A stretch of 64,000 bases of DNA from a virus (IMGVR_UViG_3300033066_000410:21391-85390); one strand, 5' to 3'; positions 10,799 through 61,149 are shown, counted from the first letter of the stretch. The notes: generated by a model from the letters alone, not told the origin. Program-made: numbers and translations.

Positions 10799-11245
10799 TT
10801 AAGTTCTTACTTCTTGCCACTCGGTAACTGAGAACATATACAGCATATCGTATTTTTCCTCAGAATCGGTGCGCAACTGCGGGTGTTCAGTATCTTTCAT
10901 TTTCATACCTAAGAAGATGATACGGAAAACCTCTTTTCCGCAGTGCATCTTCACAAGGTTACCGTCGAACTTTAAGCAGCCATCTAAAGACAGCTTGGTT
11001 AATGTCCGCATGAAATCATCATCCACACTACCGTCATAAGCGCGAACGAGTGTGATGTCAGAAAACTCCTTAATTTGATTGGAGAATTTATACCGAACTC
11101 CCGAGCTACCATCCACAATAGATACCTCTCCCGAAGATTTTTTTATCCCCGAAAGTTGGTGGAAGTGTGGAGACAGTAGCCCCTGTATCTCAAAATACCA
11201 ACTGTTTGCTGTAAACAGGTTCGTTGGTCTTAATGGTCTTGGCAT
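10799..11245 (-). CDS. tail tube protein (T4 gp19-like)
   Basis: 148 aa directly after sheath; F..LSGI, KF..Q..FSDITLVR motifs. Confidence 0.85.
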   Translation of the reverse strand: MPRPLRPTNLFTANSWYFEIQGLLSPHFHQLSGIKKSSGEVSIVDGSSGVRYKFSNQIKEFSDITLVRAYDGSVDDDFMRTLTKLSLDGCLKFDGNLVKMHCGKEVFRIIFLGMKMKDTEHPQLRTDSEEKYDMLYMFSVTEWQEVRT

Positions 11246-11266
11246 TAGCTTGGGTTTTTAGTTGGT

Positions 11267-13117
11267 TTAAACAAGAGATAAAATACCATCGTTACGGCTC
11301 AACGTAATGTGCATGTGCTCGTTACATTCAGGTGGTATGTAAGATACATCTAAGTCGGTAGCCTTGCGGTCTTCTTTGTTAACTGTAACGGTAATAACCA
11401 CGGCTGTGTCGAACGGTATGGTATTTTCGATACCTCCCTTGTTGTAAATATTTTGCATAAAAGCTAAGTAGTCAATTTGAACCTCTTTTAAGAAGGATTC
11501 ACTAATTAGCTTCTGTATGAACTTAGCTCCACGGTCTACAAGGCTTGCACCTAACCAGTTTGCCTCTAAGCGAACGTGGATAGATGAATGTAGGTCGTCG
11601 TTGCTCATGGTGCGAGAAGACCAAATAACCCAACCGGTTTGTTTGATAAACTTAATAACGTTTATGTGCCATGTTTTAACGTAGCGGCTCATTGTAGTAT
11701 CAGTCATGTTAGCATGGCTAAATTGAATAACACCAAATGAGTTGCTTTGTGTTCCGGCAGGAGGTGTCCAAACGTTACCGTTGTTCAATCCAGCAACACG
11801 TATGTAGCCGGCACCAAGTATATAGCCTAGGGCGGGAATCCATATTTTAGCACCGTTTTCATCATACACCTGTGCCCATTGTAAGTAGCCGCCGTTAAAC
11901 GATTCAGAACCCGAAAACATTCCGTTGTAGAACGAGGTAACCTGAGATTCTGTAGCATTAAAAGGCATGTTCCAAACGTAGAACTTCTTAACTGCCTTAG
12001 CGAAAGCGTCACACTTTTGGTGGAAATCAAGAGTGAAAATCTCAGGGCAAACAAGCAACTGAACATCATACGAATCGAAGATAGCAAGGCCACTTGGCTC
12101 GTTAGTTATATCAGCATACTTAGGCTCATAATCAGCCTGAACCGGAGCATTATAAACTCCGCCTGATAGGTTCGCCTCGAAAGGTAAACCATCTAGTTCT
12201 ACACCATAATCAATCTCTTCCATCATTACAAAATCACTAACGGTGTTAACCTCGTCTTGCAACGACTGCCAAGTTGCTTGAGCAAAAGATTCAACCAAAG
12301 AGTTTTTGTAATATACGTTAAGTAAATACTTAGTTGGGTTACCATTAGCATGGCCTATAGGATAAACCTTTACGGAAAGGTCGTCTCCCCAAGTTCCAAC
12401 ATCAGCTAAACCTTGATAGGCGGCTATCAGGTAAAAAATACTTTCCGGTGCTGCGGTGTTGGTGGTTGAGCCGGTAAGCGCAAAAGAAACGTTAGCGGTA
12501 GCTCCGCGTATTGTAAATACACCACCTGAACCTGATACTGGAGCCTCTGTAGTAGTTACCCATGCACTTGAGCTATTGGCCCCATTTGCGCGGTAAGTGT
12601 TTATGGCAGCAATTAAGCCTGTTTTAACCAATGCAGGAGTATCTCCTAGCACAGCTTCATAGCTAATGGTAACCCCGCCCAAAACTAAAGAGAAAGTATC
12701 ACCAACCTCTATTTCTCCTGAAATAGTGATGGTGTCAACTTGTTTAATGCCGGAAGCGGCAGCAGTAGTAACTGTTATGTCAATATCCTGAGTGTCGTCA
12801 TGGATATTTTGAACTTCTACCTGAGAGGCTTCACAGTTGTCACCAACTATGCGAAGACCGTAAATGTTTACTCCGTAACCTCCTAAGTTTTCAAAAAGGT
12901 TATTAAGAACATACGGAGAATACATCGAAGAAGAAAATCCGCCGAACTTGGCGTTACGGTCTTTTGGGTCGGTAAACAGGAAAACCTGATTAGCCACCCC
13001 ACGAACGCTTTGCATAGCGATACCGATATTGCGTGTGCTTATTCTCGAGCCTAACTGTAAAGAGTTCTTTACTTTTTCCTCGAGGGTAACACCTATTGAA
13101 CTTTGAAAACCGCCCAT
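11267..13117 (-). CDS. contractile tail sheath protein
   Basis: 616 aa; W.PPAG, IWSSRTM, IHVR sheath C-terminal motifs. Confidence 0.92.
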   Translation of the reverse strand: MGGFQSSIGVTLEEKVKNSLQLGSRISTRNIGIAMQSVRGVANQVFLFTDPKDRNAKFGGFSSSMYSPYVLNNLFENLGGYGVNIYGLRIVGDNCEASQVEVQNIHDDTQDIDITVTTAAASGIKQVDTITISGEIEVGDTFSLVLGGVTISYEAVLGDTPALVKTGLIAAINTYRANGANSSSAWVTTTEAPVSGSGGVFTIRGATANVSFALTGSTTNTAAPESIFYLIAAYQGLADVGTWGDDLSVKVYPIGHANGNPTKYLLNVYYKNSLVESFAQATWQSLQDEVNTVSDFVMMEEIDYGVELDGLPFEANLSGGVYNAPVQADYEPKYADITNEPSGLAIFDSYDVQLLVCPEIFTLDFHQKCDAFAKAVKKFYVWNMPFNATESQVTSFYNGMFSGSESFNGGYLQWAQVYDENGAKIWIPALGYILGAGYIRVAGLNNGNVWTPPAGTQSNSFGVIQFSHANMTDTTMSRYVKTWHINVIKFIKQTGWVIWSSRTMSNDDLHSSIHVRLEANWLGASLVDRGAKFIQKLISESFLKEVQIDYLAFMQNIYNKGGIENTIPFDTAVVITVTVNKEDRKATDLDVSYIPPECNEHMHITLSRNDGILSLV

Positions 13118-24389: not shown

Positions 24390-26528
24390 TTAATATTTTG
24401 TAAGCGTTGCGCCTGCATTGTATGTTATACTGCCAGATGAATTTGTTAGGGTAGCTGAAACAGTAATTGTTGTTGATGCCTTTGCCCTTATCTGTGTGCT
24501 CGGAACTAATGCGTGACCAGTATTATTTAAGCCTGCTATAAGCGCCATAGTTTGTGAAGTGTTTTCTTCGTCTGTATATGCAACTTGAAACTGTATTATG
24601 TCCGAAGATATAGCTGTTATATTAATCGTTCCTTGAACACTATACGTAGCGTCTGCCGAACCATTAGAGTAAACAATTAAATCTTTGCTTGCTGTTTGCG
24701 ATGTAAAAAAGGTATCTGTTACTAAATATGCAGCTTTTCGCCAGTTAGCATTACCTACTGCGTCTACAGATGTTAGCACCCTATTTAAACCTTGTGTGCC
24801 ATCCTGCAGACGAAATTTCGATTGTGCGCAAAGTGAATCATTAAAATAATGTGCTGAACCTGCACCCGTTGCATCGTAAACTATACGGCCCGCATTTGTT
24901 GAATATAAGTCAAGGTAGTTACTTAAATCATAGCCTGCACGAATTGGTATGCCAGTTGAAACAAAATGCCCACGAGCAGATGCCGAAGTTGTACCAAAAG
25001 CAAAGTTACCACTACTGTTTAAAAACATACCCACGTTGCTGCCATTTACAATATAGAATTTATCGTTCGCGCCTATTCCGGTTGCCGCGCTATTACCAAT
25101 ACCAACGGTATAATTTTGGGCGTTACCATCAAATAGCAAATAAGCATAGCTGTTAGTTGAATTAGTATTATTCATTATTGTTGCCGTTGGTTGCCCGTTA
25201 TTGTTTTGCGAAAGGAAAACAGCGCCCTCTATTGGCAAATTGTTTTTGCTTGTAGAATCGCCTTTTAAAAAACTTAAATTCACATCTTCGGTAGTAGAGC
25301 AACTTAAATAGCCAAACTTGCGCATTAATATACGGCGGTAAGCATTTGCTACTTTTTTGCGTCCATAATTATTTTCGTGTATTCCGTCCCCAATATCATA
25401 CCCTTGCCCTAAAGCTAATTTTCCATTACCTGCTATATCGCCAGTAAGTTCTTTAGTATGTTCATCCGTGCGCGCGTCAACTCTTAATAAAGCAAATCCA
25501 CCATGCCCAGGGTTGCCCCCCATAATGGCATAATTCATATCACGCCATTTGTTATATGCCTTTGTTCCGTTTGTTGCCCCCCATAACGATATTAACCGAT
25601 TATAGCAAGGTGTCATAGTAGCCAATACAATTTTAGCGCCTGCCTTTTTACCATAAATAACAGTATCAATAAAGGTTTGGTATTTAGTAAGCGTTTGCGC
25701 TAAAGTCCAGTTTAAGGAATCCACATCGTTCAACCCTATTTCAATAATAATTACATCATAGGTAGCTTTGTTTGCATCAGCTAACCATACCTGCATTTGG
25801 TGAACAATACTATCACCTGGTATTGCTTGGTTAACTATCGTATTACCTAAAGCACTATCACAACCCATAAGCATATAGGAAACTACCCCATTGTAAGTTA
25901 AGTATGGCGCAACTGTGCTATTCCCAAACAATACAATAGAAACAGGGTCCACAAAACCCAAACCGCTTCCAGTAGGTCCGGTAGGTCCTGTAACGCCTAT
26001 GCCAGTAGGCCCCGTTGGGCCTGTTACACCCGCTCCGGTGGGTCCTGTAATTCCGGTTGCGCCAGTAGGTCCCGTTGTGCCCACTCCCGTAGGTCCGGTA
26101 GGCCCTGCAATTCCGGTGCCAGTAGCACCAGTTGCTCCGGTTGAGCCTGTAGCTCCTGTTGCACCAGTTGCCCCTGTTGCGCCTACTGCACCAACAGTAA
26201 CCTGATAACCAAAAGGCTTCCAGCCAAAATAGTAGTAGTAATACCGGTTAGAATCGGTATCAAAAACAACTAAGCCGGTTGCGGGGGAGGTTATGGCATA
26301 TTTCTGAACAGAAGTCATTCTAGGAAATAAAGCACCTCCAGTCGTGGAGCGAATATCTACAACAGAAGATGGGTCTATAATGGTATCAGGCCCAACGGTA
26401 ACTGACCCTTTCATGGAAACTTTACCTTTTACAAGTTGATTGGAAGGAACAGTTGTCCAACCTGGGTATTGCGCAATAGTTGTAAGAGCTACCAATGTAG
26501 CAACGATAAATAGGGGTAGTTTTTTCAT
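24390..26528 (-). CDS. signal-peptide, collagen-repeat, SGNH/GDSL esterase fibre-like protein
   Basis: signal [19 protein letters not shown]|Q; FPRMT..Q...I.SPATGL domain; GxT repeats; SGNH blocks GNS, G, GLND, DGIH; beta-rich GNFAFGTT region. Confidence 0.8.
25963..26192 (-). repeat. collagen-like Gly-X-Thr repeats (GAT/GPT)
   Basis: [12 protein letters not shown]...GPTGPTG run in the translated ORF. Confidence 0.9.
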
Positions 26529-26862: not shown

Positions 26863-27612
26863 CTAAATACCTTCGGGGATGGTTTTAGTAACGTCGGCTG
26901 CAATAGCCAATTTGTGTGCTTGCATATTCAGGGAAACATGCCCTAGAAGGGCATCTTTTTCCATTTTATAGAACAGGTCAAAAGTGTTAATCTCTCCTCC
27001 CCAGTAAACGCCTGCACTTATTTTTGCCTTAGAGGTCTTAAACTCAGGTGTAGCTAGAACCTCTTTCATTTCCGTGTAGTCAGCCTCGTTGAAAACTACA
27101 AACTTTATATAGTCCTGTGGGCGGAGTAAGTGCATAAAGGCACCGTGTTTGTTTCCAGTAACCCCTGCGCTAAGTAGCTTGTAATCTAGGATAAAAGATA
27201 CGTTATCGTATTTTAAGTATGGCTCAGGGCTTATAACTCCGCTAGTCTCTACGCAAACTTTAAACCCTGATAAAGCCTTAAATAGCTTGTGTAGGTCTTC
27301 TTCTTTGCGCCATAACGGGTCTCCTCCGGTAAGGCAGATAAGGTTTGCCCCGCTCTCCAATCGTTTAGCGGCTACAATCTCGTATATGCTAGCCGTTCCG
27401 CCCCACTTAGGGTCTAGCCCATCTAAAAAATCAATAGGTCGGTCAATTCCACTCTCTTTTTCTAAATACAAGGGTGTATCGCAAAGGGTGCCCAAAGTTT
27501 TTAAGTAGCAGCGAATAGGGCAACCGGATAGACGAAGAAAAATTGCAGGTGCTCCAATCCCATAAGGGTTGCACTCTCCCATAAATGTTGTGTATACTTC
27601 TGCTACTTTCAT
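26863..27612 (-). CDS. queE: 7-carboxy-7-deazaguanine synthase-like radical SAM enzyme
   Basis: E.Y.TFMGE...G.PAIFLRLSGC...CDT, LTGGDP, VETSG, QAHK motifs of QueE. Confidence 0.85.
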   Translation of the reverse strand: MKVAEVYTTFMGECNPYGIGAPAIFLRLSGCPIRCYLKTLGTLCDTPLYLEKESGIDRPIDFLDGLDPKWGGTASIYEIVAAKRLESGANLICLTGGDPLWRKEEDLHKLFKALSGFKVCVETSGVISPEPYLKYDNVSFILDYKLLSAGVTGNKHGAFMHLLRPQDYIKFVVFNEADYTEMKEVLATPEFKTSKAKISAGVYWGGEINTFDLFYKMEKDALLGHVSLNMQAHKLAIAADVTKTIPEGI

Positions 27613-27616
27613 CGTG

Positions 27617-27985
27617 CTAAGTTATTAAAGTTGCGGTAGCTGCCAAAAGTTTTACTTTCATGTGGTAAACCTGCCTAGAAGAATCCTCTATCTCGCAAGA
27701 GGCTTGTAACGTAAGTTTTCCCGATTTATCTTTAACGTAGTAGATACAAATAACCTTATATCTATCTTGCCGAAATTCAAAAGTAGTGTGCTCCTGCAAC
27801 CAAAAAGGACTCATTGATTTAATATCCTTTTTTAAAATTGATACTTCTTCCCCCGTAACAAAGGCATCTCCAACATCTTTCATGTTCCTGTGAAATCTCA
27901 AAATCAAACCTGCATTTGAATCAGATAAGTATTCTAAAACCTCAGAATTATTTATTAGGTAATACTTACCGGTCATTGAAATCAT
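27617..27985 (-). CDS. WLQxGD paralogue family member
   Basis: PFWLQEHTTF...YKVICIYY. Confidence 0.6.
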   Translation of the reverse strand: MISMTGKYYLINNSEVLEYLSDSNAGLILRFHRNMKDVGDAFVTGEEVSILKKDIKSMSPFWLQEHTTFEFRQDRYKVICIYYVKDKSGKLTLQASCEIEDSSRQVYHMKVKLLAATATLIT

Positions 27986-28346
27986 TAAGAAGCATTTTAA
28001 CTAAAAGCTCGTTAGTTACTAAGCGGGATTCTATACCATTGTATACATTGTTGACCTCATTGCACCACTTAAATGTCCCCACTGTTGCCGTGACTCCTAT
28101 CCATTTATCAGCAGTATAATCTACTATGTAATAGTCACCTTCTAAAATAAGCTCTATCCAGTAGTGAACGTCCATTCTTTTTCCGGTCTGCCTATTGTAT
28201 ATGCTCCCGAATTTAACTGTGTGGTCTACTCCTATCGTATTGAGCTTATATGAAAGAACTCTTGTTGTTCCATCGCATTCAAGTTTTGCCTCCCTGCATT
28301 TCGCAGCCCACAGGTCTAAGAATATAATTAACTTTTCTTTTTTCAT
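27966..28346 (-). CDS. possible diverged WLQxGD family member
   Basis: HYWIELILEGDYYIVDY; sits inside the array. Confidence 0.45.
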   Translation of the reverse strand: MKKEKLIIFLDLWAAKCREAKLECDGTTRVLSYKLNTIGVDHTVKFGSIYNRQTGKRMDVHYWIELILEGDYYIVDYTADKWIGVTATVGTFKWCNEVNNVYNGIESRLVTNELLVKMLLNDFNDR

Positions 28347-28768
28347 ATAGGTTCTGCTATTTGTTCAAACTCTTCAAATGTGTAGGTATACATAACACCA
28401 TTTTCAAGACTAACTAAGTTAACAAAGTTTACCCATTTTTCTATTCCATCCTCTCCGGTTCTCTTTTCTGAGTAGCACTCAATAAGTTTAGCTGTATACA
28501 TTCTTACGGAAGATTGCCCGCCAACTACTCTAGGCTCTACTATGTTGAAATTATCTCCTTCTTGAAACCATAAAATTCTAAGCCTTTCGAGCCTAGTGCT
28601 AAACTCTTTAGTGCTCCTAAGTCTGCTTGGTGCGCCAAAATACTTTTTTACGAGAATGTTCATAGAGCTATTATACTTCTTAATTAAGTATAAACTTTCT
28701 CCGGTTACTCCTTGATAAAAGCACAGCTTATTTTCATAGAATTTTGCGTTCATTATAGCAACTCGCAT
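28343..28768 (-). CDS. WLQxGD paralogue family member
   Basis: ILWFQEGDNF; C-terminal YTFEEFEQI. Confidence 0.6.
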   Translation of the reverse strand: MRVAIMNAKFYENKLCFYQGVTGESLYLIKKYNSSMNILVKKYFGAPSRLRSTKEFSTRLERLRILWFQEGDNFNIVEPRVVGGQSSVRMYTAKLIECYSEKRTGEDGIEKWVNFVNLVSLENGVMYTYTFEEFEQIAEPI

Positions 28769-29070
28769 TTTTGTGATAACTCTTCCATGTATACCTGATT
28801 AGCCGCACCACTTTGCTCTCCGCGAAGGTCAGCATAATACGCACCATCTATAGGGTCGAATTTTATATGCTCTACTGAATAGGTAACATCTTCAAAAATT
28901 AGTCGGTTATTTTTTTGTAACCAAAACTCACATATCTTGTTCCGGTCAGACCAGAACTTTCCCTGTGTTTTTATGTTGTGTAAGTGAACCTTACCATTCT
29001 TTTCTGCCAATACTCCAAATAGGTTAAACCCCTTAGAATCGTTTAAATAAGTAACGTATTTGCCTTGCAT
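28753..29070 (-). CDS. WLQxGD paralogue family member
   Basis: GKYVT; EFWLQKNNRL...YSVEHIKF. Confidence 0.65.
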   Translation of the reverse strand: MQGKYVTYLNDSKGFNLFGVLAEKNGKVHLHNIKTQGKFWSDRNKICEFWLQKNNRLIFEDVTYSVEHIKFDPIDGAYYADLRGEQSGAANQVYMEELSQKCELL

Positions 29071-29089
29071 GTTTTATTTATATGTGTTT

Positions 29090-29097
29090 CAAATATA
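29090..29097 (-). promoter_or_regulatory. promoter -7 element TATATTTG (internal to array)
   Basis: exact match upstream of the ATG at 29070. Confidence 0.55.
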
Positions 29098-29098
29098 A

Positions 29099-29446
29099 TC
29101 AAAAAGTGTAGATTTTTGCAAACTCTTCTATGTTCATTGTATATTTAGGTATGAGCTTACCTTTGAGTCTAGTAACACTTCCATATCTAACCATATACTT
29201 ATCAGAAGTAGGTTCGTAGATAACTTCTGAGACCCATACTCTTCGGTTTCCAACTGTGTGTAAAATGTCTTTTGGTTGTAGCCAAAAAGGTAGCAACTCC
29301 CCACCACTTACTGCTGATGTAGTAGCTGTTCTTATGCTTTGAATGTTTACGTGTGTGAAGCTTACTTTTTGAACTTTAAATATAGAATTAGATAGTTTTG
29401 GGCAGGTTACATAATCGCCCAACGAGTATGACCAAGTTATATTCAT
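29099..29446 (-). CDS. WLQxGD paralogue family member
   Basis: GDYVT; PFWLQPKDIL...RVWVSEVIY. Confidence 0.7.
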   Translation of the reverse strand: MNITWSYSLGDYVTCPKLSNSIFKVQKVSFTHVNIQSIRTATTSAVSGGELLPFWLQPKDILHTVGNRRVWVSEVIYEPTSDKYMVRYGSVTRLKGKLIPKYTMNIEEFAKIYTF

Positions 29447-29817
29447 TTGAATGTGTAAAGTTCTGACAGTTGCTTGCAGTCCATATCTAAAGTTGTTAGA
29501 CTTTTAGGGTGCGCTGCGTATGTAACAACATAGTTTTTAGTTGAATTGCTGTAGCATACCTTTCTTACCTGAATTTCATCAAGCAGGTGGTCGTTCCAAG
29601 CAGGGGTAAGAATATCTCCTACTTGAAGCCAATACCGTTCAAAAAGTGCCCCTTCTAGCTTATCTGTGGCTATGCCTGTTCGCAAATTTACTGCTGTAAT
29701 AAACTCAGTAACTCCTTTAACGTTGCTTGCAAATTCGTGTTCAATGGAAGAAATGGCAAACACATCATTTGAATGATGGTAAGCTGTAACGTAAATACCT
29801 GGCTCGAATTTTCTCAT
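29443..29817 (-). CDS. WLQxGD paralogue family member
   Basis: GIYVT; RYWLQVGDIL; LSELYTF. Confidence 0.7.
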   Translation of the reverse strand: MRKFEPGIYVTAYHHSNDVFAISSIEHEFASNVKGVTEFITAVNLRTGIATDKLEGALFERYWLQVGDILTPAWNDHLLDEIQVRKVCYSNSTKNYVVTYAAHPKSLTTLDMDCKQLSELYTFK

Positions 29818-30179
29818 TGTAAACTATACAGTTCTGAAAACAATTTAATGGGTAGGTTAAATCTAGCAGGGTTGGGGTTTTTAGAGAACCCATTAAAGTC
29901 TCCGAATTTTACCCAATACTCTTTTGACTTTGGTTGCCAGTAGATGCTGTCTACCCACACTCGCATTTTCTTAGCATCCTTAACCTCTGCTATCAACTCA
30001 TCTTTCTTTTGCAGCCAATGCAAAGAAAATTCCTCCTCCGGTAAAGTCGAAACCTTATTTTCTTTAAGGCTATATAGAATAACCTTACTCGCATCCGATG
30101 GGTCAGGTGCAGAGCAAACAACATAAATATCCCTATTCAATCGGGAAGAGACTACGTATGTTCCTTTATTTGCTTTCAT
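29814..30179 (-). CDS. WLQxGD paralogue family member (start MKANKGTYV)
   Basis: GTYVV; LHWLQKKDEL...RVWVDSIYW; LFSELYSL; start reassigned from 30266 by comparison with paralogues. Confidence 0.7.
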   Translation of the reverse strand: MKANKGTYVVSSRLNRDIYVVCSAPDPSDASKVILYSLKENKVSTLPEEEFSLHWLQKKDELIAEVKDAKKMRVWVDSIYWQPKSKEYWVKFGDFNGFSKNPNPARFNLPIKLFSELYSLQ

Positions 30180-30559
30180 AGAATGTGTATAGTTCAGAAA
30201 AGTTAGACAGCATAAAGCAGGACGATGCAAAAAATCTGTGCTTTGTAGTAGGGTTATATTCTCCAAACATTATATTGTAACAGTCTCCCCGTCCCCAAGC
30301 GAAAAATATTTTTTTCAACCCATACACGTTTACCATCATCTGCATCTGCCGGCCCTAGTATATCACCACTCTGAACCCACAAAGGAGCTAGGCTTGTCTC
30401 AATAACCCTAGTGTTATTCCATGTGCGAATATTAGTAACTAAGACTTCTGTGTCCTTTAGTTTGTCGCCTAGTATAAGCCCCGCAGTGCTTGCAACCTCA
30501 TAAATATCATCTGAGGCTTTGCTCATCGTAAGATACTGTCCGGTGTAATACTTTGACAT
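30166..30559 (-). pseudogene. WLQxGD paralogue with a +1 insertion in an A7 run
   Basis: PLWVQSGDIL...RVWVEK; removing one A at 30309-30315 restores IFFAW...NFSELYTFYESK like its neighbours. Confidence 0.7.
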
Positions 30560-31035
30560 TAGAACGGAAATAGTTTTTCTGATGTTCCCATAAATTCAAA
30601 CGTTTCTAAGTAGCTTATGTCACACATACTCTTACTTATTTCAAACGTTTCTAAGTAGCTTATGTCACACATACTCTTACTTATATTTCTAAGTTCCTTG
30701 GTGTAAACTTTATAATGAACTTTTAACTCAGGATTTCTCTTTTCTTGATATTTTGCCTCTAGGTAGTCTACTATAAGATACTCGTCAAAGTATAAAAAGT
30801 AGTCGCCTCTTTGTAGCCAAAACAGAGTTAGGTCGTCTGTGCTCCATAAACTAGTTAGGTCTTTCTGCCAGTCAATTTTTGTTCCGTTTGTTACAAATCG
30901 TTCCATCGCTATTAGCGGAAAAGTTACGCAGTCATATCCGCTAAACTCATCAGGGTTTATACTTTCAAAAAACACCGAAGGTATTTTATCTTCTCCCTTT
31001 AGAACGTAAGCTCCTTTAACTAAACCCTTCTGCAT
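30559..31035 (-). CDS. WLQxGD paralogue family member
   Basis: GAYV; LFWLQRGDYF; carries an in-frame 15-aa duplication. Confidence 0.65.
   Translation of the reverse strand: MQKGLVKGAYVLKGEDKIPSVFFESINPDEFSGYDCVTFPLIAMERFVTNGTKIDWQKDLTSLWSTDDLTLFWLQRGDYFLYFDEYLIVDYLEAKYQEKRNPELKVHYKVYTKELRNISKSMCDISYLETFEISKSMCDISYLETFEFMGTSEKLFPF
30595..30684. repeat. perfect 45-bp tandem duplication
   Basis: ttcaaacgtttctaagtagcttatgtcacacatactcttacttat x2. Confidence 0.95.
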
Positions 31036-31471
31036 CTCTTAAAAATTTTTCCCTAGGTATTTTTAGCATAGCCCTTGTAGCTAGTTGCTTACAGAGCACA
31101 TACAAGCCTCTTTTTAGCTGCTTGCTTGCCTTGTTTATGTAAAGTATATCTTCAACCCTAACAACTCCCCCACCGTATATAAATCTATCGTGTATCTGTA
31201 TAGGGTAGTCTTGCAACTTCATCAACTCCTCAATAGTGAAATCTTCGGTGTTGTTTTTGTTCTGCTTAGTAACCACTCTATGCACAGATATGCACTCATA
31301 CTTAAATTCACCGGTAGCATCCATAACCGTAACGTCTCCGGTATACTTATATAGTGTGTCGGTTTCAGGCTCGTATAAGAAGTGGTTCGCTTTGGGGACT
31401 TCAAATAAATATTCTGTTATCTTTTCCCCGTTCTCATCGGTAGAATGTATAGGAAAATAGGGCATAAACAA
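31016..31471 (-). CDS. WLQxGD paralogue family member (diverged)
   Basis: DYPIQIHDRFIY...VRVEDILY. Confidence 0.55.
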   Translation of the reverse strand: MFMPYFPIHSTDENGEKITEYLFEVPKANHFLYEPETDTLYKYTGDVTVMDATGEFKYECISVHRVVTKQNKNNTEDFTIEELMKLQDYPIQIHDRFIYGGGVVRVEDILYINKASKQLKRGLYVLCKQLATRAMLKIPREKFLRDAEGFS

Positions 31472-37547: not shown

Positions 37548-37560
37548 GTGTGTATGTGTT

Positions 37561-37580
37561 TATATTTAAGTCAAATATAG
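37561..37580 (-). promoter_or_regulatory. conserved early promoter CTATATTTGACTTAAATATA
   Basis: identical 20-mer at 51126 and 54859. Confidence 0.75.
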
Positions 37581-41143: not shown

Positions 41144-41175
41144 GTGCTTGGTTTTATGTGTGTTTATATTCGATT

Positions 41176-41183
41176 CAAATATA
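41176..41183 (-). promoter_or_regulatory. promoter -7 element TATATTTG
   Basis: exact match. Confidence 0.65.
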
Positions 41184-48094: not shown

Positions 48095-48117
48095 TTCCTT
48101 TTCGTTTATATCTGATT

Positions 48118-48125
48118 CAAATATA
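48118..48125 (-). promoter_or_regulatory. promoter -7 element TATATTTG
   Basis: exact match; TTG 19 nt upstream. Confidence 0.65.
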
Positions 48126-51113: not shown

Positions 51114-51125
51114 TGCCTTATTTTT

Positions 51126-51145
51126 TATATTTAAGTCAAATATAG
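51126..51145 (-). promoter_or_regulatory. conserved early promoter CTATATTTGACTTAAATATA
   Basis: identical to 37561 and 54859 copies. Confidence 0.75.
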
Positions 51146-54851: not shown

Positions 54852-54858
54852 CTTGTTT

Positions 54859-54878
54859 TATATTTAAGTCAAATATAG
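54859..54878 (-). promoter_or_regulatory. conserved early promoter CTATATTTGACTTAAATATA
   Basis: identical to 37561 and 51126 copies. Confidence 0.75.
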
Positions 54879-56626: not shown

Positions 56627-56642
56627 TTTTATATATTTTAAT

Positions 56643-56650
56643 CAAATATA
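56643..56650 (-). promoter_or_regulatory. promoter -7 element TATATTTG
   Basis: exact match. Confidence 0.65.
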
Positions 56651-60671: not shown

Positions 60672-60688
60672 TTAATTTTTATTTAAGT

Positions 60689-60696
60689 CAAATATA
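60689..60696 (-). promoter_or_regulatory. promoter -7 element TATATTTG (extended GACTTAAAT)
   Basis: near-identical to the conserved early promoter. Confidence 0.7.
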
Positions 60697-60717: not shown

Positions 60718-61149
60718 TTAACCAATAGTAGAAATAGTGCAAGAAGTTGTGCAGGTCTCCTCAATGGTAACTGTTATTCCTACATGGGCGATTTCCTTAG
60801 ACAGAAGATACTTTAATAGCCTATCATATATCTCCTTAGCTATAGTTTCACAGGTAGGATTTCCTATGGTAGTTACATACGCGCTATTTTCCAACTCACA
60901 GAAAGCTATAAGGGCTTCATCTTCCTGTGCTAGTATCAACTTATGGTCATAGTGCATTTCTATTTCTTTTGTGAAGTAGCCCAACTCTCCAAAGTCTACT
61001 GCCATATCGTATTTATCGGTTCCTAGCATTTTAACTGCTATATGCCCGTTCCACGAATGTCCATGCACACTTGAGCATTTTCCTACATATCCTTTTATTA
61101 GCCGGTGGGCCGATTCAAACCTGAACTTTTTTGTTATAGTGTATTGCAT
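60718..61149 (-). CDS. queD: 6-carboxy-5,6,7,8-tetrahydropterin synthase
   Basis: F.FESAHRL, C..VHGHSW, DFG, YDHK, NPT.E.IA motifs. Confidence 0.9.
   Translation of the reverse strand: MQYTITKKFRFESAHRLIKGYVGKCSSVHGHSWNGHIAVKMLGTDKYDMAVDFGELGYFTKEIEMHYDHKLILAQEDEALIAFCELENSAYVTTIGNPTCETIAKEIYDRLLKYLLSKEIAHVGITVTIEETCTTSCTISTIG

Follow-up and report, generated by a model that had tools for sequence, protein, structure and literature searches.

Nine diverged paralogues with a predicted two-barrel fold form a multicopy gene array beside a queE-like gene in an uncultured phage

What might a phage do with a run of ten small, closely packed genes, most of which share a W-L-Q-x-G-D core and little else? 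The locus that raises this question lies on the minus strand at 27617-31471 of a 64,000-nucleotide stretch, bases 21391-85390 of the 85,390-bp, ~99% complete IMG/VR virus record IMGVR_UViG_3300033066_000410. We refer to this whole stretch as the window, give coordinates as positions in it, and number the ten open reading frames (ORFs) g1 to g10 along the direction of transcription. An earlier reading made from the sequence alone (the sequence-only reading) had counted 9-10 paralogues. We find that nine of the ten genes form one family, whose products are predicted to fold as a pair of SH3-like barrels, and that the tenth, g9, is not a member.

Membership is not evident from pairwise comparison, as BLASTP on its own connects just g3, g4, g5 and g6 (E 1e-9 to 1e-4; g4 against g6, 6e-9). 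A profile hidden Markov model (HMM) built from these four retrieved g7 (E 4e-4) from the 597 six-frame ORFs of the window; with g7 added it retrieved g10 (1e-3), and the three top remaining ORFs were then g1, g2 and g8. As a non-circular test, an HMM was built only from 25 external homologues, which had themselves been chosen with an HMM of the six solid window members, and was searched against the same 597 ORFs. This external-only HMM retrieved exactly g1-g8 and g10, with E values from 5.3e-12 to 4.9e-5, the latter being that of g1, while the best non-member ORF scored 0.66 and g9 1.9. As a negative control we searched ten more distant phages that carry QueE; their 1,227 ORFs gave no match below E 0.1, and in the family-bearing loci all HMM matches fall within the arrays and on the coding strand. 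The count of nine, and the paralogy of those nine, is therefore upheld; the count of ten is not, g9 being an unrelated insert by the HMM. The genes, with the E values of the external-only HMM, are as follows.

31016-31471, minus strand: g1, 151 amino acids (aa); the most divergent member, with YPIQIHD lacking the Trp and an additional N-terminal hairpin
30559-31035, minus strand: g2, 158 aa; FWLQRGD; E 9.3e-6
30166-30559, minus strand: g3, LWVQSGD; a frameshifted copy
29814-30182, minus strand: g4, 122 aa from the ATG at 30182; HWLQKKD; E 3.7e-10
29443-29817, minus strand: g5, 124 aa; YWLQVGD; E 1.5e-6
29099-29446, minus strand: g6, 115 aa; FWLQPKD; the reference structure
28753-29070, minus strand: g7, 105 aa; FWLQKNN; the copy best conserved across phages; E 5.3e-12
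28343-28768, minus strand: g8, 141 aa; LWFQEGD; E 2.1e-6
27966-28346, minus strand: g9, 126 aa; lies outside the family, its product having a transglutaminase-like Cys-His-Asp fold
27617-27985, minus strand: g10, 122 aa; FWLQEHT; the last member, 4 bp ahead of queE; E 4.1e-8
26863-27612, minus strand: QueE-like radical-SAM (S-adenosylmethionine) gene, phrog_2076 E 5.6e-22; the downstream boundary of the array

All nine core motifs quoted in the sequence-only reading were found in the minus-strand translations, and the tight overlap of the genes and the 4-bp gap to queE (27613-27616) were correctly described. A longer ORF for g4, with a TTG start at 30266, overlaps the tail of g3; the start of g4 is most likely the ATG at 30182.

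Is the family already known under another name? The sequence-only reading had recognised none, and we agree with it: neither the ten window proteins nor 40 family members have a consistent match in Pfam, PHROGs or PADLOC, PDB sequences searched with a profile yielded 0 matches at E<=10, and no member matches a structural PHROG. PADLOC, which holds defence models only, returned just two single-member matches near noise, and no family match to known anti-phage-defence families. Among 50,697 GenBank phage records there was no match by blastn of the region or tblastn of g7 and g4, and the two phages closest by terminase, Bacteroides phage BS162P1 and faecal phage MT835482, have no family match either. 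An exhaustive HMMER search of 1.84 billion protein representatives found seven outside proteins with the same motifs, whose contigs hold long runs of similar small genes, and no match longer than 188 aa. Searching a 5.8-billion word-indexed database with g6 alone returned only g6 itself, and searching it with family alignments added 3 more proteins. When IMG/VR was scanned with a back-translated motif, 12 single matches, compatible with chance, and no arrays came up; a single-protein QueE scan of IMG/VR found nothing, and a QueE alignment search added 10 more distant phages, none of which carries the family. The family now comprises 66 members (E<1e-3), all stand-alone proteins of 60-236 aa; a search among longer proteins found none, which is weak evidence.

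Our conclusion from this set of searches is that the sequence family, its fused two-barrel architecture with an invariant junction and its arrays of up to 18 copies beside queE are new, and that the general kind, the lineage-specific expansion of a small binding domain in phage, is already known. The family is well delimited by its 66 sequences, a confident two-barrel model, the invariant junction and a fixed address beside queE, and it is a tractable case for studying how a scaffold diversifies by gene birth and death in phages. With it, stand-alone tandem Tudor/KOW-like proteins gain an example from a bacterial virus, the bacterial relatives of this fold being ones that dock on RNA polymerase (RNAP).

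The shared motif pattern had been taken to suggest two small KOW/SH3/Tudor-like barrel halves, and the structural comparisons (AlphaFold2, Foldseek, VIA-align and ESM Atlas) support that suggestion. AlphaFold2 predicts two SH3-like barrels meeting at the motif P-[FY]-W-L-Q-x-G-D, with the five-stranded SH3-like barrel seen in KOW. The g6 model has a mean predicted local distance difference test score (pLDDT) of 90.6, and ~95 at the junction motif; g1 is modelled at pLDDT 78 with the same order as g6, barrel-helix-junction-barrel-helix. Each protein would on these models be a stand-alone, rigid pair of Tudor/KOW-type barrels, in which the junction closes barrel 1 and opens barrel 2. Aligning the N-terminal and C-terminal halves with HHalign gave a probability of 3.5%, at which homology between the halves is not detectable. 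The nearest folds are the RapA N-terminal tandem Tudor, Spt5/NusG KOW, CarD, eukaryotic tandem Tudors and PWWP with single-stranded DNA (ssDNA), and the Foldseek neighbours of g1 are the SAWADEE tandem Tudor, Spt5 KOW, CarD and RapA. As a side observation, two proteins of Bacillus phage AR9 with adjacent accessions, A0A172JI82 and A0A172JI81, are among the top viral structural neighbours of g6 in BFVD, a model-based hint that AR9 too may have tandem two-barrel paralogues.

Two sets of positions are conserved in the 66 members. The first comprises inward-facing strand hydrophobics (G10, Y12, V13; L22, Y23, V25; V72, I75; V86), and the second the junction P53-[FY]-W55-L-Q57-x-G-D60, in which Q is found in 66/66 sequences, while W and D are each found in 86%. 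Aromatic residues are conserved at Y12, Y/F23, F/Y54 and W55, which may form a surface cage of the methyl-lysine-reader kind or be buried in the core. The remaining alignment columns have entropy near the maximum. Isoelectric points (pI) run from 4.05 to 9.55, half of the members lying below 6, and net charge from -17.5 to +5.8. Conservation of this kind is characteristic of a scaffold held constant while its surfaces are free to vary. A shared DNA-reading role is disfavoured because the pI range is wide and no basic surface is conserved, two features that are compatible with diversified protein binders.

The reading we favour, tentatively and with somewhat less than even confidence, is that the proteins act as binding modules, non-enzymatic and diversified in their surfaces, which engage different host factors in takeover or counter-defence. 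The scaffold would stay constant while each copy presents a different surface, so that different copies could engage different host factors. By analogy, RNA polymerase and its partners would be the foremost candidate targets, since the N-terminal domain of RapA, the RID of CarD/TRCF and the KOW of NusG dock on the transcription or translation machinery. Phage early regions are rich in small orphan genes, and expanded families are the best place in them to look for takeover or counter-defence factors.

The invariant junction raises a second possibility, that all copies bind the same machine or ligand through the W-L-Q-x-G-D site and differ in regulation or affinity. Candidates for such a common target are the host RNAP flap or zinc-binding domain, Rho, the ribosome, or the phage's own 7-deazaguanine-modified DNA. 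That the Gln is invariant and the Trp nearly so speaks for this, as does the company the fold keeps, the nearest structures being RNAP- or ribosome-docking or nucleic-acid-associated barrels (RapA N-terminal domain, Spt5/NusG KOW, CarD, PWWP with ssDNA; PMC8666675). The array, moreover, always adjoins queE, and the genome encodes FolE (G000 10815-11345) and QueD (window ~60733-61140) as well as the QueE-like protein. However, the spread of charge and the acidic half of the family are unlike a shared nucleic-acid binder, polar surface residues beyond the Q and D are not conserved, and one target gives no obvious need for 9-18 very different copies. The linkage to queE may be mere inherited synteny, and the confidently modelled junction may simply staple the two barrels together. 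We regard a single common target as doubtful, though a serious contender.

The constant junction and the variable surfaces could also serve together, the junction anchoring one common partner (the RNAP flap/zinc-binding region or a phage effector) and the surfaces capturing different host proteins, such as defence sensors. This arrangement, which we put forward by analogy and consider unlikely, would if true amount to a binder library, in which gene birth and death has diversified a natural repertoire of adaptors.

How close, then, are the nearest known systems to the favoured reading of diversified binding modules? The N-terminal domain of RapA (Tudor_1_RapA PF18339 and Tudor_RapA PF18337) likewise places two consecutive Tudor/SH3-like barrels in ~110 residues, and contacts RNAP at its flap tip and zinc-binding domain (PMC8666675). 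The domain is the top Foldseek PDB match of g6 (8t0l_F, E 1.9e-4; 6bog_A, 7.3e-4); an independent ESMFold model has it as its closest structural neighbour (template modelling score, TM, 0.51), and it is also listed for g1. The geometry match is loose, at TM 0.4-0.5 and a root-mean-square deviation of ~10 A, and the inter-barrel geometry differs; furthermore, the RapA domain is fused to a Swi2/Snf2 ATPase, whereas the phage proteins stand alone. The Tudor_RapA sequence profiles match nothing among the window proteins or 40 members. The KOW domains of NusG/Spt5 (PF00467) also occur in tandem pairs (Spt5 KOW2-3 and KOW6-7; Kin17), but the phage family has no NGN domain and KOW proteins have no W-L-Q junction, which is specific to the phage family; Pfam KOW has no match in the 10 window proteins (E<=1) or in 40 members (E<=0.1). 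Eukaryotic tandem Tudor/SAWADEE/Agenet readers (53BP1, SGF29, UHRF1, SHH1) share a similar-sized two-barrel build and are recurrent Foldseek matches of g6 and g1, although the matches are weak (E 0.01-0.05, TM 0.25-0.4) and come without sequence similarity, and their methyl-lysine reading has no obvious substrate in a phage-bacterium setting.

In kind, the array most resembles the small-domain expansions of other phages. Bacillus phage G holds ~35 zinc-ribbon copies in a lineage-specific expansion (PMC7824862), and in expansions of this kind the small paralogues are, as here, tandem, on the same strand, diverged, in non-structural regions and of changing copy number. The present family differs from such expansions in its sequence and in its fused barrel pair with a junction of its own. 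It was also compared with the nine phiEco32 'GDVF' paralogues, whose motif GDVF...VNLxTG resembles barrel 1: HHalign gave a probability of 37% over 39 columns, out of structural register, and family members have no match to the PHROG of the 'GDVF' family.

The next question is how the array came about. In the 1.84 billion protein representatives the family is carried by about five phage lineages, all metagenomic or uncultured, and fragments of it are known besides the arrays of these five. Copy number varies across these related phages, as follows.

This record: 9 copies
JGI Ga0613775_0000182 and identical strain contigs: 13 copies at E<1e-3, up to 16
NCBI JAWVHG010000440.1 (101 kb): 18 copies
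Logan SRR25435939 (88.8 kb): 12 copies
SRR27294600: at least 9 copies

Every lineage has a contiguous same-strand array that runs to a QueE-like orthologue. At the related loci L009, L013 and L014 the QueE orthologues directly after the arrays are 44-62% identical where aligned, and at L028 and L029 a radical-SAM gene likewise lies downstream. Locus L009 and the window have the same upstream boundary gene (272/274 aa) and the same gene order of array, queE, fibre and portal.

A quick maximum likelihood tree (IQ-TREE) has very long branches, with a median of 1.8 substitutions per site on terminal branches, and most of its deep nodes are unresolved. Several groups are nevertheless supported by the Shimodaira-Hasegawa-like approximate likelihood ratio test (SH-aLRT). 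Thirteen L013 genes form a clade of their own (97), two L009 genes form a duplicated pair (99), and g3-g6 of the window cluster with a single L009 gene (87), which therefore indicates a 1-to-4 expansion in the window phage. Alongside these lineage-specific groups are collinear orthologue pairs. The tree groups g7 with L009_10001 and L030_46, and g7 is 41% identical to L009:10001-10312; g8 pairs with L009_10309 (SH-aLRT 98; 33% identity to L009:10309-10749) and g10 with L009_11452 (L009:11452-11820). Between the window and L009 the array orthologues are 29-41% identical and QueE 61%.

This is birth-and-death evolution, with lineage-specific clades and shared orthologues, and it bears out the proposal that the family was amplified and then diversified. 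The duplications are old, because no DNA similarity between copies extends above 17-18 nt. The proposal had gone on to liken the locus to a gene accordion, and for this we see no case: near-identical copies at the DNA level, as recent adaptive amplification of the poxvirus K3L type would leave, are absent. A recent accordion is rejected on the repeats of at most 18 nt, the median terminal branch and the strain contigs, which are equal in copy number; those of the L009 phage are identical over the array apart from one deletion.

Turnover of the array is nonetheless visible in individual genes. Fresh mutations had been reported in two members, and both are present. Within g2 there is a perfect in-frame 45-bp tandem duplication at 30595-30684 (Tandem Repeats Finder: period 45, 2.0 copies, 100% match). 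The N-terminal part of g3 (30254-30559) covers profile positions 1-83 of 119 and is followed by a frameshift at an A7/T5 run, ~30310-30322; the SELYTF tail lies in the +1 frame at 30166-30345, and its coding sequence shares an 18-nt match with g5. The frameshift may be a genuine mutation or an error in sequencing the homopolymer. We also observed that contig L011 differs from L009:12137-12547 by a 60-bp in-frame deletion, from 136 to 116 aa, and is otherwise identical; this is a population-level indel within the family. Together the g2, g3 and L011 lesions show turnover of the array.

Such lesions invite the suspicion that the copies are dispensable, drifting duplicates, the decaying relics of a past amplification, and the extreme divergence along terminal branches would fit that as well. 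Yet across 66 copies from five lineages the open frames, the hydrophobic core pattern and the invariant Gln have been retained, neighbouring genes remain closely packed and their starts and stops coupled, and AlphaFold2 folds even g1, the most divergent copy. Because the open frames, core pattern, Gln, packing and g1 fold all persist, purifying selection on the fold is indicated, and we hold mere drift to be very unlikely.

When would the proteins be made? The sequence-only reading had placed an internal promoter at 29090, and an exact copy of a repeated promoter-like element does lie there.

29077-29097, minus strand: promoter/leader-like element TATATTTGAAACACATATAAA; sits 19 nt ahead of the g7 ATG, in the array's one real gap
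37559-37579, 41163-41183, 48105-48125, 51124-51144, 54857-54877, 56630-56650 and 60676-60696, minus strand: the other minus-strand copies of the element

There are 14 minus-strand copies and one plus-strand copy of its box TATATTTG, a TAnnTTTG box of the Bacteroidota -7 type. For the extended element, TATATTTG-N6-ATATAAA, 9 matches were counted where 0.03 would be expected. Eight of them lie on the minus strand, in the interval from 29 to 61 kb, and each precedes a start codon by 16-32 nt; the same extended element lies upstream of the arrays in L009 and L013. A generic sigma-70 promoter scan stayed at chance level, with 21 found against 25 expected. Judged from these occurrences, the element is probably the early/middle promoter class of the clade. 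The packed genes are translationally coupled and would be driven by this promoter-like element of the 29-61 kb small-gene region, and since the element is the same, early or middle expression is indicated. On this basis g7-g10 and queE form one unit under the promoter class of the small-gene region (presumably early/middle), and g1-g6 continue a unit that starts upstream. The terminase is nearest (~40%) to that of Bacteroides phage BS162P1, and a Bacteroidota host is likely because this affinity and the promoter type both point to one.

Expression context also bears on whether the array has a structural or assembly role, with products that belong to the virion (as decoration, tail accessory or ejected internal proteins) or that act as chaperones for the fibre genes next to it. 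Downstream of the QueE-like gene come a 101-aa gene and then a collagen/GDSL tail-fibre gene on the same strand, so that the array lies two genes upstream of the fibre gene, and L009 keeps the order of array, queE, fibre and portal. On the other hand, the element ahead of g7 belongs to the class of the 29-61 kb small-gene region, and the structural region contains no exact copy of the extended element. The lack of structural PHROG matches points the same way. Copy number and content vary freely among close relatives, which is unusual for stoichiometric virion parts, and one copy is frameshifted in an otherwise ~99% complete genome. We consider a structural role improbable. The tail-fibre-like gene itself (24390-26528, minus strand) encodes collagen repeats together with an esterase domain of the GDSL/SGNH type (Pfam 4.9e-8), and is likely to specify a receptor-modifying fibre.

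It remains to account for g9, the one gene of the ten outside the family. Its sequence has the pattern C...H-x-W-x-E...D, its Pfam matches to Transglut_core and NAT are sub-threshold, and its Atlas structure resembles transglutaminase-like clusters at TM 0.55-0.79; against the family HMM it scores E 1.4-1.9. It sits where L009 has the duplicated family pair, and looks like an unrelated insertion into the array. Uncharacterised proteins of ~126-145 aa that resemble g9 are common in bacteria.

Transglutaminase-fold enzymes act on Gln side chains, and Gln is the sole invariant residue of the family. One could imagine from this and from the fold and pattern of g9 that the copies are substrates of g9, modified or cross-linked at that residue. 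But the arrays of the other four lineages have no g9 homologue or Transglut_core-like gene in or beside them, and the position of g9 at the L009 pair speaks for an insertion unconnected with its neighbours. We give this explanation hardly any credence, and leave the remaining probability to roles other than those considered here.

As for the gene at the downstream boundary, the QueE-like protein has an invariant Cys triad C-x3-C-x8-C instead of the usual radical-SAM C-x3-C-x2-C. QueC and TGT have no Pfam match in the genome, though a divergent DpdA could escape the TGT model. On gene content, a 7-deazaguanine pathway is a plausible context for the array. Near the arrays, at L009:2498-3409 and L028:8010-8786, the related phages also have unusual auxiliary genes, namely a DIT1_PvcA-like gene (isonitrile-synthase family) and a weak TRM-like methyltransferase match.

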